Of a stretch of DNA of 64,000 bases, positions 4,315 to 53,171 are shown piece by piece. Position numbers and translations under genes: made by a program. The stretch comes from Dictyostelium discoideum. Taxonomy: Eukaryota. The notes beneath the pieces were generated by a model. It made no database searches. It saw only the letters and a list, made by a program, of their open reading frames with translations, and was not told the DNA's origin. Location of the stretch: positions 2,624,001 through 2,688,000 of the forward strand of contig CM000151.3 of NCBI GenBank assembly GCA_000004695.1, in the 5' to 3' direction. The first letter of the stretch is position 1, and the number at the start of each line of letters is the position of its first letter.

Positions 4315-5355
4315 TTATAATTTACTTATTAATTTATTAAAATGTAATAATTTTGGTAAACCTTGATCAACTAATTTAATTGCTTCAATAGCACAACCCC
4401 AACTTACAGTGAAACCACTACCACCATGACCATAGTTATGAACTACTAATTTTGAACCACCTTCAAAGAATTCATTTTCTAAACGAATTTCATGTCTAGC
4501 AGGACGTAGACCAACTTTAACACCTTGAATTTCAATTCTATTTTTAGCAAAACGTGGTGAAATCATGGCTACACGTTTTAAGATTTCTTCAGTATCTTTT
4601 TTAGTTGGATTTGTATTGTAATCGTGTTCTTGATTTGTACCACCTAAAACTGTATTTGTTAAACGTGGAATTACATATGCGATATGATCTTCTTCATCCA
4701 TGATTGAACGATCGGTTGAGTTTTTAATAACGATAATTTGACCACGACCTGGATAAATTGTACGATCATTGAATAATTCACGTGATCCTAAACCGGTGCA
4801 ATTTACAACTACATCATGGTCAACAAAAGCTTCACGAATATCAACGAGGTGTCTTTGTTCAATGATTCCACCTAAACTTTTGAATTGGTCGACTAAATAA
4901 TCCATATACATATCAGTGTCCATAACGAAACCGTCATCAATTGCATAACCATCTACATATCCATCTGGTAGTTCATCTTTTCTAGCTCTTCTAAATGATT
5001 TAATGTATGGTTTCCATTCTGGATCTTCTGGATGTGGACGTCTGAAAATTTCATTTACTTTCTTTGTGATTGTACCTGATTTTGGGTCATTAATAATATG
5101 ATCTTTATAATATTGCATGGTTTCTGCTGACCATTTACCAACTAAATCTAGTGGATTACATAAAAATGGATACCATAATGCTGCTGCTTTATTTGAGGTT
5201 GTATTTGGTGGTAAATCTTTGGCCCAAATTGATACACTCTTATAATTACCACTCTTTAATGCAATAATACCTGTTGATAAACCAATACAACCACATCCAA
5301 TAATTAATAAATTAATTTTTGGATTTTTATTATTATTATTTTTATTTTGATTCAT
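4315..5355 (-). CDS. D-amino-acid / D-aspartate oxidase (FAD-dependent DAO family), peroxisomal with PTS1
   Basis: 346-aa ORF. It has an N-terminal Rossmann GxGxxG (LLIIGCGCIGLSTG), DAO-family colinearity (HNYGHGGSGFTVSWGCA near the C-terminus) and a C-terminal tripeptide -SKL. Confidence 0.85.
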   Translation of the reverse strand: MNQNKNNNNKNPKINLLIIGCGCIGLSTGIIALKSGNYKSVSIWAKDLPPNTTSNKAAALWYPFLCNPLDLVGKWSAETMQYYKDHIINDPKSGTITKKVNEIFRRPHPEDPEWKPYIKSFRRARKDELPDGYVDGYAIDDGFVMDTDMYMDYLVDQFKSLGGIIEQRHLVDIREAFVDHDVVVNCTGLGSRELFNDRTIYPGRGQIIVIKNSTDRSIMDEEDHIAYVIPRLTNTVLGGTNQEHDYNTNPTKKDTEEILKRVAMISPRFAKNRIEIQGVKVGLRPARHEIRLENEFFEGGSKLVVHNYGHGGSGFTVSWGCAIEAIKLVDQGLPKLLHFNKLISKL

Positions 5356-5751
5356 TCTTAAAATTTATATATTTTTTATTTTTAAAAATGTTAATGTGTT
5401 TTTGCCGAATTATTTTTTAAAAAAAACCTCGTTTCCTTTAGAGGTTTTTTTTTTTTTTTTTTTTATTTTATTTTTAATTTTTTTTTTTGATTTTTTATTA
5501 TTTTTTTCATTAAAAAAAAATGATAAAAAATCAAAAAAAAAATGAAAATAAGAAATTTCGGCAAATTTATTTTCACTGGTTTTGAGTGATGATATCTAAT
5601 TGGGATTGTTGGGATACCAAAAAAAAAATAAAAAAAAATAAAAAAATAAAAAAAATAAAAAACCAATAAAATAATAATAAAAATATAAAATTTAATAAAA
5701 AAAAAAAAAAAAAAAAAAAAAAACAATGTTTTTATTTTTAAATCTAAGATT

Positions 5752-44312: not shown

Positions 44313-44386
<74 letters not shown>

Positions 44387-44725
44387 ATTATTATTATTAT
44401 TATTATTATTTCTATTTAGAAAGTTGTATTCATTATCAATCATTTTCAAAATGAATGAATGAATTTTTTTTTTTTTCTTTTTTTTTTATTATTTTGGCGC
44501 CAAAATTTTTTTTTTTCCAAAATTAAAAAATAATAAAAAACTAATAAAACAACAACAAATTTTAGTTAGTATACAAATCTGCCAATCAAGCCATTAATGG
44601 TACAACTACGTTATGATTGGTACCACTTATGGTTAAAATAAAATTTCGGTGTAATAAAACCAAAAATATTTATTATTTAATTTAATTTTTTTTTATTTAA
44701 TTTAATTTTTAATTGGTGTTTCATC

Positions 44726-47271
44726 TCATCTGTCTTTAAAAGATTTTAAACCACAAATTAATTTATGATCACTTTGCCAATCAACAGTTTGACAATCACG
44801 ATCACAATAGTTTGTTGTACATTTTGAAGTGCAAATTTTACCACAATTTGCGCATAGCGATGGAGTTGTGGGGCCTTGAATGATCCAATCACAATCGTGA
44901 ATTTTTTGATTATCAAATTTAGAACGACATGTTGAAAAGGCAATAAACGAGTATTTACCACCAACTTTCAAGCTTGAAGGATCGATACATTGACCACCTT
45001 CGACAGCGAATCTACATGGGAAACCTTGGACGTCCCATAAGAGTAATTCGATATCATCACCTCTGACCAACGGTTGAGCGGCGAGTGTACTTGGAAAAAA
45101 CATTTTTCAAAGACAGTTCTAATGTCTGGCATTAGATCAGCCAATGGGTTTGTACCACCTTGATCAAATGAAGACTGAGCAACAAGTTTATAATCCTTCA
45201 TTGTGATTCTTGGATTCTCTGGAAACCCCTTTGAGTAGCCACCATACTCTTTATGTCTAATGAGTTTATCATTTTCATGGTCTTTTAATAATTGACGAAA
45301 CTCTTTAATCACTTGAATTTCTCTAGCAGACTTTTTAACCTTTGCTTCTTGAGCGTTTGCAAATACAAATGGTACTTTTTGATCGAGATCAACCTTTACC
45401 TTTCTTCCCATTTAGATGTGGCTTTCTTTGAGAGATTAGCCAAGATTTGACTTGCTTTACTTGAGCCTTTGATTGAAGCAACCTCTAAATATGTTAAACC
45501 TAATTTACCATTTTTAGTGACATTGATACCTTTGCCATGACCATCAATTTGTAAATACAATTTACCCAATTCAAATGTAGCTTGAACTATATTATTTTCA
45601 CCATCATTATATTCCAAAGATTTTTGAAAATTCTCCAATGCTTTTGAAATGGCAGATGATTCAGATGATTTCAATAATAATAATCTACCTAAATTTAAAT
45701 TTGCTTCACCAATACCAGTATTCATTTTATAACCAGTTGACATTGCAATTGATAAGTTTGTAGCTTTTGTATACATTTGCTTTGCCTTTTATAAATTACC
45801 TTGACTACGATAATAATCACCCATGGGTGCAACGAATACATCAGCAAACACCGTTTCATTTAAACCTTTACTTTTGATTAACATTTTCTCAGCATTTTTT
45901 AAATCTTGATAAAAGAATTTACTTGTCTGTGCAGCTGGTTCATATTCCAATGATGGATTCTTATCGAAGTATTCCCTTCTTTGCTTTACATTTACTTTAA
46001 TCAATGCATCACTAACCAAAATCAATTTCAGGCTCTGATATCTCTGCAGCAAGTTTAACAGTATCCATTTCTGGTAAAGTACCCGCCCTTGTCATATTGG
46101 TAAAACGTTATCAGAATCTATCGGCTCGGTAAATGCTGATTTCTGTTTTGTACCCATTACTGACCTGACGCTATCCTTATACTTTTTATTATTTGGCTCA
46201 AGATCCAAAGCTAATTTATAAAAGTAGGCTGCCTTCTTTGATTTTTCCAATAGTGTAAAACACTTTGCAATCACAGCATACCCCTCTGCCCTGCATGGAC
46301 GAATGTAAAGTAATCTTTCAATATCAGATTTCGCAATATTTAAATGCTGTTGCATTCTAGTCTTCACCTTTTCACACCACTGTAACCAACATTTTCCTCT
46401 TGAAAGGTATAGATCAGAAATGAAATTCTCTGTCAAACCTCTATAATCCAATGCTAATGAATTGAATTGCTGCTTGCCCATTACCTGCTTTAATCATTTC
46501 ATCAGCTTGATACTTATATACCATCGCCTCTGCCATTTCATCTAAATGTGGATAAAGTGGTTTCAACTCCAAATCATCTGAATTATCAGTCCATGAATTA
46601 AGTTGTTTAGTCCAATCTGCAACACTCATAGTTTTATCCAATACAAATATACTCTCAACAACTTTAAGTGTAACTAATTTTAAATGATTCCATGAATTGA
46701 ATTGTTCACTATGTTCACAACCTTCATTACATTTTCTTGATTTTTCAGTTGGTTCTTTATCATTATTTGTATCATAAAATCCCTTTATATATATATATAT
46801 ATATGTTAATACTTGTAATTTTATTATTATTATTAATATTATTATTATTATTTTATATTATATTGTATATATGAATATATACCTCATAAAAATGACTACC
46901 ACATGCTAAAATAATTTCATTTTCATTTTCTAATTGACTTGATGGTATATTTTTCCATGGATGACTAACCTAAACATCAACAAATAGATTGAAATCAAAA
47001 TCAGAAGTACGACCAACTGCTAATTTTTTCATCATTAATTCACTTTTAAGATATCTTAATTTTGTATTTTTAATTAAGAATTCACCTCCAACTGGACCCT
47101 CTTTATATTCTGCATAAGTTTTTTCCCATCTTTCATAAAAAATCTTTCTAAAATTTCTGAATGCTCTATCAGATGAGCCAAACCCTTTAAAAAAAAAAAA
47201 GAAAAAAAAAAAAAAAGAAAAAAAATATTTACTCTGTATTTGAATTTATATTTTTCATCAAGACTAACCAT
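44726..47271 (-). pseudogene. Disrupted gene encoding a TPR/Sel1-like repeat protein with a C-terminal MYND zinc finger. It has 2 normal AT-rich introns at the 5' end, then one in-frame TAG and at least five frameshifts.
   Basis: Six successive minus-strand ORFs in different frames overlap each other by 15-40 nt. There is no AT-rich intron between them (44726..45103, 44968..45411, 45396..45776, 45789..46052, 46092..46481, 46441..46641). Sel1/TPR-like segments include YFYKLALDLEPNN and ATFELGKLYLQIDGHGKGINVTKNGKLGLTYLEVASIKG. MYND is CANCGKICTSKCTTNYCDRDCQTVDWQSDHKLIC. The 5' exons are MVSLDEKYKFKYR|GTAAAT.. and GFGSSDRAFRNFRKIFYERWEKTYAEYKEGPVGG...FNLFVDV-TAG-VSHPWKNIPSS.. GC is about 40% compared with about 28-33% in neighbouring exons. 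Pseudogene versus assembly error cannot be decided from the sequence alone. Confidence 0.5.
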
Positions 47272-47645
47272 TTTCTTACTGTTGTTGTAGAATTATATGA
47301 ACAATGAAATTTACAAAAAAAAAAAAAAATTTGTGCTAACTAAAAAAAAAAAATAAAAAAAAATAAAAATAAAATAAAATAAAATTAAAAAAAAACAAAA
47401 ATGGCTAAAATATATAAAATAAACAATTAAATTATATTTTGAACTTCTATTTATAATGGCGAGATTTAAGAAAGATTTTTTTTTTTTTTTTTTATAATTT
47501 TTTTTTTTTTTATTTTTATTTTCATTTTTTTAATTTTTTTTTTTTTTTATTTTTTTATTTTTTATTTGATGGTTTAAACAAATATTCAATCTGAAATTTC
47601 AATAATTAATTTGTTTTGAAAACAAAAAAAAAAAAAAAAAAAAAA

Positions 47646-49138
47646 ATGAACCCAGAAATTTTAGAACATAAAAATGAAGATTGGGAATTCATTAAAATTT
47701 TAGGTTCAGATAAAGAAGTACATAAAAAGAAAAATGGTCCCTTAAATGAGTAAATGTATCACTTTGTGTAATTAAAAAAATTGAAAAAGTATGTAATAAT
47801 AATAACGATAATAATAATAATAGTTTTATGTATTAATTTTTTTATTTTTATTTTATTTTATATTTAGGAATTTTTTTTTTCAATTATTGATATTTTAAAT
47901 AAATTAAAAAATTGTGAATATTCAACAAAATATTATGGATTTGCATATGATAAAAATAATAAATTATATATTTATATGGAATATATTGATGGTGCAATTA
48001 CTATAGAAGAGAAATTAAAACAAATTGAAATTGTTCCACAAGATATTATTATTTTATTAACAATCAAAATAGCAGAAGCATTAAGTAAAATTCATGAAAT
48101 GGGTATTATTCATCGTGATATTGGGGTAGTAATATACTTTTACTTGAAAAAGAGAATAATCAAATTCAAATTAAATTTATTGGTTTTGAAAATGCAATAC
48201 AAATTGAAAACAATTCAAAATATAATTCAAGAGTTGGTACAGCTACACATATGGCACCAGAAGTGAAACTACAAGATGGTAATGCAGGTCGTAAATCTGA
48301 TGTATTCAGTCTAGGTTGTACAATAATTGAAATGGCTGGTGGTGATTTAAATAGTACCATTGGTAGAGACGCCAATGGAATACCACCAATACCAGTACAT
48401 TTATCATCAGAATTAAAAATCATCACCCAAAATTGTTTACATTTTAACCCAAAAACAAGATTTAGTATAGATGATTTAATTTCTCATATTAATAAAGAAA
48501 AAGTTAATAAAGACCATTTCTATTCTCCATTTGGGTATATAATACCATCAAATGTAAAAAGGCTTGAAAAAAGAGATGGTGGTGACCAAACACTTACAAT
48601 TGGATTAATTGGTAATGATATAAACTACCTTTCATTTCCATTTTATAATCAAATGATTCCAGTTGGATCAATTCCATCATCAGTAAAATATCTTTTATTT
48701 AAAAAACTTAATCAAAGGATTGAAGATGGATCAGTGCCAGATTCTGTTGAATATTTAGATTTAGGTGATGAATTTGATATTGTAAACAATGGTATCGATC
48801 TTCCAAATGATAGTATTTCAGTGTTAAGATGTGGTTTTAATTTTCAAACACCAATTCATTTAAGAAATTTACCAAATTCAATAACAGATTTACAATTGTA
48901 TAATTATAATATAAATATATTAAAAAATAGTTTCTCATCAAATGTATCATCACTAACACTTGGTTCCAATTTTAATTCCTTTGGATCCCTTAAAAATCTT
49001 TCAAATTTTAAAAATTTAAAAAGTTTAACATTTAGTTTTGAAGGTGTTGAAAGTCAACAACTTATAACTCAAATAATCAATGATTATATACCAAATAATA
49101 TTATTTCTGTAATTATAAATGGAAAACAAAGAAGATAA
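47646..49138 (+). pseudogene. FNIP-repeat-containing protein kinase (fnk-like) with a frameshift in the catalytic loop; likely a pseudogene
   Basis: Exon 1 is 47646..47749 (MNPEILEHKNEDWEFIKILGSDKEVHKKKNGPLNE, donor GTAAAT). Exon 2 starts at 47869. ...KIHEMGIIHRDI is in frame 0. Then gg occupies 48123-48124. Then GSNILLLEKENNQIQIKFIGFENAIQ...THMAPEVKLQDGNAGRKSDVFSLGCTIIEMAGG is in frame +2. Where HRDIKGSNILL is expected the sequence reads HRDI-GG-GSNILL. The C-terminal half has FNIP-type repeats (IPSSVKYLLF..., DSVEYLDLGDEFD..., LPNSITDLQL...). Confidence 0.55.
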
Positions 49139-49520
49139 TTAATTAAAAAAAATAAAAATTAAAAAAAATAAAAAAAAAATAAAAAATTTGATATTTAAAA
49201 TTTAAACAAACTGTTTTTTTTTTTTTTTTTTTTCTGATAACCCCCATAATTAATAATTCAATTTTTAAAAAAAAATATTTAGATATTTTCCAATATCCTA
49301 AAAAAACAAATTTTATTTTCCAAAAAATCTTTTTTTTTCTCTAAAAATATCTGATTTTATTTTTTTTTTATTTTTTTTTTTGTTTTTTTTTTTTCAAAAT
49401 AATTCGCTGACAAACCATCACCTCTATCATTTTTTTTTTCATTTTAATTTTTTAATTTTTTTTCAATTTTATTTTTTTATATTATATTTAGTATTTAAAC
49501 ATTTAAAAAAAAAAAAAAAA

Positions 49521-49983
49521 ATGCCAAATAAAAAAAGAAATAAAGATTTAAACAACAGTGAAACTGTTCCAGAGGAGACAGGTAAAAGAAAAAGAAAATC
49601 AATTTATGATTTGGAAACAATTATAAAACCAAACCAAAAATCAACATCTGTTCCAATTGTTGAAAGAGAAACACCATTTATATCACAACCACCACCAACT
49701 ACCAATAATGAAATTTCTCAAGCATTTAAAGAAATTTCGAATAATGATGTTACATTCAAAAATGAAGATTTAATAAATATTGAATATTTAAATAATTGTA
49801 ATAAAGCAAGATTGGAATATATTTCAAATACAATTGGAATTCCAGAAAATATAATTAAAAAATGTGATTTTCGTGGTCTAATTAAAAAAATCATTGAAAT
49901 TGGTATTAGTCGTTATCAATTTATAAATCAACAAGAACAAATTAATAATAATAATTATAAAAATAATAATAATAATAATAATA

Positions 49984-50074
<91 letters not shown>

Positions 50075-50654
50075 TAATAAAAATGAAATTTTATTTTGGA
50101 GTGTATGGAGAAATTTAGTATTGAAAAATACAATATTATCAAACTTTTCACCACATCTATCAATTAAATATGATTCTATTGTTATGGTTGATAAAATGAT
50201 AAATAATGATCAATTATCAATGATAAAAGATAAAGTTAATAGAAATCAATTTTTAATATTTAGTAGTGGCTCATTAAAAAAGTTATATTCAGTATTTGGT
50301 AAAGAAGATGAGGAAGGAAATAATGAAAATACTCGATTCTTTTTTAATTTATTTAATAATTATGGTGATAGATATATAATTGATTGGAAATCAAAAGGAA
50401 AATCAAATTTAATTAAATCATTAATAGAGAATAATTCAGTTACAGGAATTTCAACATTAGTCAATAAATTTCAATTTGAAATTAATATAAATGAATCCAT
50501 CACACTTGCAATTTCAACTGGTTGTTCTTTAAAATTATTTAAATATCTTTTTGAATTATTTTTATTTAAAACTACCAATAATTATAATAATAACAATAAT
50601 AATAATATTGAAAATAATAATAGTAATATTGAAAATAATAATAGTAATATTGAA

Positions 50655-50743
<89 letters not shown>

Positions 50744-53171
50744 AAATAAATCTATGGATTTCATTTTATCAATATTTTTATCATCTCCTAATAAAAGTAA
50801 AAAAGAATTAATTAAAACATTTAAAATGATTTTATACTTGATGGAAAGAGAAATAATAAATTTAAGACAATATAAGGATGAAATTTTAAAAAAGATAACA
50901 ACATTATGTCCATTAGTATCATTATTTAGATTAAAAGATTTAATTAAAGTTATTAAAATAATTAATTGGTTTAATAATAATAATGATAATGATAATTCAA
51001 ATTTAATTAATAATGAATATTCAATTTGTCAATTAAATGCAAAACTTGTTGATCCAACAAATTTTAATAAAAAAATAAATAAATTAAATATTAAAGAATT
51101 ATTAAATATTTATTATAGTAATAGAAAACAACTAGATTTTACTTCAAAACAATTCTTTAATTATTATTATGGTGATGATAATGATAATGATGAAAGTAAT
51201 AAGGAATCTCAAAATTATACTCTTTTTGGAAACTTTTTAAATCAAGTTGATAGACAAGAAAGTGATATAGAATTTAAGCTTACTCAACCTTTACAAAATG
51301 GTGATTTACATTTATTTAGTGATTGGTTATATAATTTTAATAATAAATATGATCATGAATTTTTTAAAACATTATTAGATAAAAATCAACTACTTAAAAA
51401 TGAAAATTCAATATTATTTTCAAATTTTAAAAAACAAGAAGATCAAATTAATTTTTTAATTTCTTGTACTTTAGTAATAAAAGAAATTATTAAAACAAAT
51501 GAAAACTCAAATTTCATTACAAATTTTATTGAATCAAATATTTTGTTTTTATTTTTAGTAAAACATGATTCAGTGGAATTATTTAAACATTTCTCAAATC
51601 AATTCTCTCAAAATGAAAAAGAAGTTGTTTTTTGTTTTCATGATGAATCTCAAGATGAAATACTTGATTTCAATATTTGCAAATATATAAATTCTATTGA
51701 AATGTTAGATTTCATTTATCAAGAATTTCATCATCTTTTTATTTATTCAAAGTATCCAAATTTTTTAAATTTTAAAAATTTAAATTTATTAAAACACTTT
51801 GAAAAATTAATAAATTCATCAAAGAAAAATAAACAACTACAACAACAACTACAACAACAACGACAAATTAAAACTCATTATAAAGAAAAACTTTATTTAA
51901 TTAATTTTAAAGGTAGTTTTAAATTAAATTTTGAAACTTTTAAACATATTGTAGAAAATCCTACAATATATAACTATGGTTCAAAAATTTTAACACCAAT
52001 TATTACTGATTTATACCAAGGTAATAATTGTAATGAAGTTGTATGTTTATTTAAACATATATTCAATACAAATATTTTCGATAGTGAAATGAAATCAAGA
52101 ATGCTACAAGTTTCAAACTACTTTTTAGATTCTGACGAAAAACCAATTTTATTATCAAAGTTTTTTGAATGGTTATATGAAAATAAACATTTTACCCCAC
52201 CAAAAGATGTACCATTCATTAAAAAATCAAGTTTTGGTCCAGGTTTCGCTTCATCATCATCGTCACCATTTGGAGGATCTGGTACTAGTAGTACAGTTGG
52301 ATCAAGGTTTGCTAGTTCAACTTCATCATCATCACCATTTGGAGAATCAGGTACTAACAGTACAGTTGGATCAAGATTTGGCAGTTCAACTTCATCACCA
52401 TTAGAAGGATCAGGTACGAGCAGTACAGTTGGATCAAGATTTGGTAGTTCAACTTCATCATCACCATTAGGGGGATCAGGTACCAGCAGTACAGTTGGAT
52501 CAAGATTTGGTAGTTCAACCTCATCATCACCATCAGGAGGATCAGGTTTTAGTAGTAATACAAATGGACCAATATTTGCTAGTTCAAATGTAATTCCAAA
52601 TCCAACAACCATTTTAAATAGTCTTCCAGATATTATTTGCTTTTATTACTTATCAGGTAAACTTGATGAAATCGATGATGAAATCTTTAATTTTAAAAAC
52701 ACCTATTCTGGAGGTAGGGATATGTTTACTTCATTTTTATATAAACTTGCATATTTTATTGGTAAAAGAGGTGATTTGAAAGCATTATCAACTGTTATTA
52801 GCAGAGCAACAGATAATTTAAAACCATTCCCAAATTCAAATGTTCCTGAATATAATGCTGAGTTTAATTGTATCAGAAATTTCATTTATTCAATTTTGGA
52901 AACAGCTGCTTATAATGGTCAAATCCAAATATTCCAATATTTTCAATATCATCATTGTCATGTTTTGCAAGAAAATGCCATCGAATGGTTTAGAGAAGAT
53001 AAACTTTTAAATTTAATTAGAACCTCTTTAAAAAATGATCATATTGAGATTACTCAAATATTATTATCACATCTCTATCTTTCAAAACACAAGTTTTTAA
53101 ATATTTACTTTAATGATAACATTTTTAAAACCAAGATTTCTTATAATTATTTTTGTGAACTATTTAAATAG
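49521..53171 (+). CDS. Large low-complexity hypothetical protein of 1216 aa (M at 49521), with poly-Asn tracts and five C-terminal Ser/Gly-rich repeats (SSPFGGSGTSSTVGSRFGSSTS)
   Basis: Single long ORF. The ORF-track ORF begins earlier without a plausible start. The N-terminal region (...EILFWSVWRNLVLKNTILSNF...) and the C-terminal region (...SLKNDHIEITQILLSHLY...) resemble those of 23848..27990. The -ORF 52118..52612 is the antisense of the SG repeats. Confidence 0.55.

Follow-up and report, generated by a model that had tools for sequence, protein, structure and literature searches.

The closest described relatives of the locus analyzed here belong to the FNIPK subfamily of Dictyostelium protein kinases. 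FNIPK-A to FNIPK-E (fnkA-fnkE) share its layout, in which FNIP repeats come after a STE-like kinase domain, as well as the motifs W-E-x-I, LC-x-IK, HRD and HMAPEV; they are active or partly degenerate, are only about 28-39% identical to FNIPK-G, and are roughly 720-790 amino acids long compared to 471 for FNIPK-G. Goldberg et al. (2006, PLoS Genet 2:e38, PMC1420674) identified 15 kinase pseudogenes and generally treated this category as inactivated duplicates of a parental gene. The same kinome catalogue includes an FNIPK-subfamily pseudogene, FNIPK-F_ps (fnkF), which confirms the statement in the first-pass annotation of this DNA that fnk genes include pseudogenes; unlike FNIPK-G, FNIPK-F_ps is a dual-domain kinase with the motifs HFDIKCQN and HRDIKGDH and lies at another locus.

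Table S2 of the catalogue also contains a sequence identical to the locus itself, listed as FNIPK-G_ps (DDB0229868p; STE / Dicty3 / FNIPK) with the flag 'pseudogene', and the agreement extends to the conceptual protein, both X positions and the motif calls (CVIK for VAIK, HRDIXGSN for HRD and GFE for DFG). An X stands at each of the two frameshifts (...GPLNXVNVSLCVIKK... and ...HRDIXGSNILL...), and a chromosome-2 duplicate, FNIPK-G_C2d_ps (DDB0217289p), is entered with the second site spelled HRDIGGSN (PMC1420674). The first-pass suggestion of a pseudogene in the fnk/FNIPK family was correct and already in print. The pseudogene and both of its frameshifts have been known since 2006, and the importance of the finding is accordingly small. 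To the FNIPK-G_ps entry the present analysis adds the codons that were there before the lesions (GGA for Gly, AGG or AGA for Arg), an intact conspecific allele, intact orthologues that are syntenic and subject to purifying selection, and a sister isolate in which the gene was lost independently. The practical value lies in annotation, as the predicted proteins UPI00004E2BA6 and ACTFIT_002873 are still circulating. In addition, other isolates keep the gene intact and the standard laboratory lineage is its natural null, so that the locus offers a clean case of very recent, polymorphic pseudogenization; the repair of two bases would be a simple route to the study of FNIP-repeat pseudokinases.

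Polymorphic unitary pseudogenes are known in other organisms; in human CASP12, for example, a null allele produced by small lesions exists beside an intact allele. FNIPK-G appears to be analogous, with null and intact alleles within one species and without a compensating intact paralogue.

The sequence examined in this study (the window) is the whole stretch of 64,000 nucleotides of Dictyostelium discoideum DNA, in which the surroundings of the gene are AT-rich, Dictyostelium-type sequence with introns. The locus is very probably FNIPK-G_ps with two independent 1-bp deletions, best described as a unitary pseudogene that is very recent and remains polymorphic. The first deletion (47747/47748) removes a G from the Gly codon at residue 35 and brings an immediate TAA into frame. 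The second (48122/48123) removes the A from the Arg codon of HRDIRGSN. According to this reading, the two deletions disable the gene in the lineage sequenced here, and only a 35-residue peptide could be made.

Gene layout and the two frameshifts

Relatives were collected by protein search, and eight loci (L001-L008) were compared to the window. The features of the locus are as follows:

47646-47753, + strand: ATG and opening segment of exon 1; the ATG frame reads MNPEILEHKNEDWEFIKILGSDKEVHKKKNGPLNE before a premature TAA (47751-47753)
47747-47748, + strand: frameshift 1; one G gone from an ancestral GGA (Gly), from DNA alignments
47750-47788, + strand: remainder of exon 1, displaced by one base; reads VNVSLCVIKKIEK
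47789-47867, + strand: genuine intron, GTATGT...TTTAG, 79 nt, 8.9% GC, phase 0
47868-48122, + strand: first part of exon 2; N-lobe, alpha-C to HRDI, aligned to MST3/STK24
48085-48152, + strand: bogus 'intron' of the predicted protein UPI00004E2BA6; 68 nt, 27.9% GC, coding-like; removes the whole catalytic loop
48123-48124, + strand: frameshift 2; GG left over from an Arg codon, which is AGG in the near-identical contigs of D. discoideum and AGA in sister lineages
48125-49138, + strand: second part of exon 2 in the shifted frame, GSNILL... to TAA 49136-49138
48182-48190, + strand: GFE replacing DFG, in the second part of exon 2
48254-48262, + strand: APE, in the second part of exon 2
about 48487, + strand: end of the kinase C-lobe, in the second part of exon 2
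48644-48769, + strand: best of four FNIP-repeat matches, in the second part of exon 2

The N-terminus MNPEILEHKNEDWEFIKILGSDKEVHKKKNGPLNE is common to the intact orthologues P0002 and P0123. At site 1 the window reads AAT-GA GTA, compared to AAT GGA GTA in L001, L002 and L004-L006, and L007 agrees with the latter by its intact product. The Gly codon affected is residue 35 and a TAA follows directly after codon 35; therefore, translation from the ATG can yield only a 35-residue peptide. This deletion was missed by the first-pass annotation, which assumed a single frameshift and reported that an obvious VAIK lysine was lacking. The equivalent motif, CVIK, is present at 47765-47776 (Lys codon 47774-47776), out of frame with the ATG because of the 1-bp deletion upstream. 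The intron that follows occupies the same position as in the intact orthologues, whose annotated proteins are recovered with one intron, and the spliced product is colinear with kinases, with EFFFSIIDILNKL... opening exon 2 at 47868.

At site 2, three-frame translation places HRDI (CAT CGT GAT ATT, 48111-48122) in frame with EALSKIHEMGIIHRDI and IAEALSKIHEMGIIHRDI upstream. The HRDI codons are followed directly by a stray GG, and from 48125 the codons GGT AGT AAT ATA CTT begin GSNILLLEKENNQIQIKFIGFENAIQ..., which continues through HMAPEV and the FNIP repeats to GKQRR and the terminal TAA. In the unshifted frame, the sequence past HRDI reads GVVIYFYLKK... and reaches a stop at 48264-48266. The frame change previously described at 48111-48130 (HRDI-GG-GSNILL) is present in the sequence and its translations at exactly those coordinates, and the 3' half of the kinase (APEV, FNIP repeats) lies in the shifted frame as claimed, open from 48125 to 49138. 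The resemblance to kinases is not due to chance, since the Pkinase and FNIP profile matches span the break once it is bridged.

The codon at the break had been taken for the catalytic-loop lysine, but the DNA alignments identify it as Arg. Where the window has ATT-GG GGT AGT, L004-L006 have ATT AGG GGA AGT and L001 and L002 have ATT AGA GGT AGT, so that the missing base is the A of an Arg codon, between 48122 and 48123. HRDIRGSN is found in all FNIPK-G orthologues, while the Lys of HRDxK occurs only in paralogues and outgroup kinases. Relative to its homologues, the window carries a deletion at site 2 in comparison with seven loci (L001, L002 and L004-L008) and at site 1 in comparison with six (the same loci without L008). 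The locus contains disabling lesions in conserved coding sequence whose intact ancestral state is known, as in a pseudogene, and from the reading frames we infer that a functional product is absent.

Intact alleles, orthologues and selection

Three of the loci compared, L004-L006, are Logan contigs (SRR26869267, SRR26869256 and SRR26869257) that are 99.2% identical to the window and are reported in seven samples in all (1, 2 and 4, respectively). They contain the intron, which indicates that they are genomic, and both of the missing bases, and they encode an uninterrupted 471-aa protein. This protein equals the bridged window protein at all other residues, and the three coding differences are all synonymous. 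The existence of a near-identical intact conspecific allele indicates that pseudogenization was very recent and is polymorphic within the species.

More divergent intact copies were found in L001 and L007 ('D. discoideum' ACTFIR and ACTFIW) and in L002 (D. cf. discoideum ACTFIZ), all of which encode intact proteins. L001 and L007 are syntenic with the window, with a zf-MYND gene upstream (- strand) and a protein of ~1200 aa downstream; L002 shares its other flanking genes with the window, while the zf-MYND gene was not seen there. The ACTFIR and ACTFIW isolates diverge from the window by about 8-10% over the region as a whole, with an identity of only ~90-93% along all 20 kb of synteny (window 37637-59157), a region-wide divergence that fits the description 'tropical isolates / possible cryptic species' (PMC12745789).

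Between intact copies, NG86 dN/dS was 0.27-0.51 (0.27-0.54 for the syntenic orthologues of sister isolates), a rough estimate in a genome of ~25% GC, with a significant synonymous excess (Fisher p 1.8e-6 to 2.5e-3). Constraint was stronger in the kinase domain (dN/dS 0.13-0.43) than in the FNIP part (0.51-0.68). Values below 1 in intact copies indicate a functional, fast-evolving gene as opposed to a dead duplicate, and the syntenic intact orthologues under constraint (L001, L007) are those that characterize a unitary pseudogene. The gene is also broken in L008:4500-6060 (GCA_054859205.1, D. cf. discoideum ACTFIY), which has lost 14 bp near 4933 and 2 bp near 5602. Because these frameshifts differ from those of the window, the gene was lost independently in the L008 lineage.

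Domain content and predicted biochemistry

Domains were assigned on a conceptual protein in which both breaks were bridged by inserting one placeholder residue per break. The Pfam Pkinase profile (PF00069) matched residues 46-255 of the bridged protein, across frameshift 2, with E=9.5e-34 and 117 bits (cut-off 31.7 bits), and FNIP (PF05725) matched in four stretches with E=4.6e-20. The best solved relatives are STE20-type kinases (e.g. MST3/STK24 at 2.9e-18). The top non-orthologous matches are Dictyostelium proteins combining Pkinase and FNIP, in agreement with the placement of the sequence under FNIPK in Table S2.

Several catalytic motifs are degenerate throughout the FNIPK-G clade. In place of the glycine loop (GxGxxG), all FNIPK-G orthologues have LGSDKEV or LGPNKEV, compared to LGTGSFG in paralogues, and in place of the DFG Asp all orthologues have KFIGFENA, compared to IDFG in paralogues. 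In the catalytic loop (HRDxKxxN), HRD and the Asn are kept and the Lys position is occupied by Arg in all intact orthologues. The beta-3 Lys is retained as CVIK in L004 and L002. The closer paralogues have HRDxK and DFG, although some, such as P0011 and P0013, are also degenerate at these positions, with HGNIKGEN and NFS. In kinases generally, loss of the DFG aspartate predicts that phosphotransfer does not occur. Since GFE replaces DFG and Arg replaces Lys in all of the orthologues, which also lack the glycine loop, even the intact FNIPK-G protein is probably a pseudokinase that works through its fold and FNIP repeats. The first-pass alternative of a 'pseudokinase remnant' contained some truth in this respect, as even the intact orthologues are without the DFG Asp and glycine loop.

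L001:9608-11152 and L007:3001-4512 share 6 extra nucleotides, inserted in frame into the beta-3 strand, that change CVIKKIEK to CVIIFLKIEK, a further erosion of a catalytic motif in an otherwise intact gene.

Alternative explanations

The alternative that survives best, although we consider it improbable, is that the locus retains a residual function, producing no kinase but a 295-aa protein of C-lobe and FNIP repeats from an internal ATG (48251), or acting through a regulatory transcript. The 295-aa reading frame (48251-49138) is open and holds all of the FNIP repeats, and residual transcription is reported for nine of the 15 kinase pseudogenes of the 2006 catalogue (PMC1420674). However, an open reading frame would be expected regardless, because the lesions are so recent (no non-synonymous and three synonymous differences); the ATG at 48251 also lies deep in the transcript with many ATGs upstream of it, and evidence for a separate promoter is absent.

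It is more doubtful still, and in our view highly improbable, that the gene is intact in the strain and that one base is missing at 48123-48125 through assembly or sequencing error, an outcome that the first-pass annotation had named as refuting its own reading. The site adjoins a short G run (GGGG), and the existence of a conspecific allele with the missing A makes an intact sequence plausible. However, two separate bases would need to be absent, and what site 2 has lost is an A beside the G run, hence not a change in run length. Moreover, a second, independently assembled genome with the locus tag ACTFIT (L003, GCA_054883475.1) shows 100% identity to the window between 47600 and 49200, both deletions included, and differs elsewhere mainly in long homopolymers; over 21.5 kb there are 16 differences, eight in homopolymer length and eight base substitutions, as expected when a nearly identical strain is assembled separately. 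This genome was assembled de novo from Nanopore plus Illumina data in a project that covered tropical isolates and possible cryptic species as well as an axenic laboratory strain, AX2-214 (PMC12745789). Curation in 2006 likewise filed the locus as a pseudogene and not as a 'c' (corrected DNA) model (PMC1420674). The reading frames specific to the deletion allele (295 aa, 48251-49138; 96 aa, 47976-48266) had no exact match among read-derived Logan contigs, so the independent support for the deletions consists of one other assembly and the 2006 curation. As judged from these sequences, the lesions appear to be real and not an assembly artefact.

The least credible alternative, which we regard as extremely improbable, is a functional gene expressed by programmed -1 frameshifting at both sites, by a micro-intron or by RNA editing: GGGG at 48123-48126 could in principle permit low-level slippage of tRNA-Gly and the duplicate entry of Goldberg et al. 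has HRDIGGSN (PMC1420674), but slippery heptamers of the form X XXY YYZ are absent from both sites, an in-frame TAA lies immediately past site 1, the intact alleles simply have an extra base (which marks a deletion rather than a recoding signal kept by conservation), all relatives examined keep one frame straight through both sites with no frameshift conserved among them, the sole GT...AG at site 2 is a 4-nt GTAG, and the 'introns' that would bridge the break are of implausible length (26-68 nt), have coding-like composition (23-28% GC compared to 8.9% in the real intron) and delete the catalytic loop.

The reading as a gene disabled by two real deletions also bears on the history of the laboratory strains, which originate from NC4. 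L003 is probably AX2-214, given its near-identity to the window and the fact that AX2-214 is the only laboratory strain in its project. If so, the lesions arose before the laboratory strains were derived from one another's common source, and they may be taken to have been inherited from the wild parent of these strains. On balance, we favor the broader view that NC4-derived strains are natural double-frameshift nulls for a gene that other wild D. discoideum and sister lineages keep intact under selection, with one or more sister isolates having lost it independently; FNIPK-G would then be a functional/null polymorphism, still segregating, of a fast-evolving FNIP-repeat protein, probably a non-catalytic pseudokinase, rather than an old dead duplicate.

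Gene models that mask the lesions

Goldberg et al. noted that automated predictions had concealed disabling mutations by adding introns (PMC1420674), and existing models of this locus do the same. The 424-aa UniParc sequence UPI00004E2BA6 maps exactly to the window with 'introns' at 47718-47867 and 48085-48152, the first being the genuine intron stretched so that it hides frameshift 1. The 2025 model from L003 (ACTFIT_002873, KAM9952181.1, 438 aa) uses a 26-nt 'intron' at 48129-48154. Both are prediction artefacts in which splicing has removed the CVIK strand together with some or all of the catalytic loop. As their bogus introns hide the lesions and the catalytic loop is missing, UPI00004E2BA6 and ACTFIT_002873 are unfit for use as real proteins.

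In L008, the annotation masks the lesions by splitting the gene into two calls (109 aa and 310 aa) and placing a 121-nt 'intron' in the FNIP region. The NCBI model of L001 (P0003, 383 aa) begins at an internal MEYIDG despite an open 469-aa reading frame with one intron.

Genomic neighborhood

The upstream neighbor is a zf-MYND/TPR-like gene on the - strand, with reading frame pieces at 44726-46641, for which no megablast counterpart was found in L002. When window 44353-47794 is compared to L002:8739-10280, the L002 interval is about 1.9 kb shorter, and a retrotransposon pol gene (RVT/integrase) is located about 8 kb upstream of the kinase in L002. The downstream neighbor (49380-53171, + strand) is a long single reading frame of about 1217 aa from the first ATG. 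It contains poly-Asn tracts, and Ser/Gly-rich units (GSGTSSTVGSRFGSSTSS...) are repeated in tandem near 52100-52600. All relatives have an orthologue of 1193-1230 aa, and these orthologues have no Pfam domain on record.
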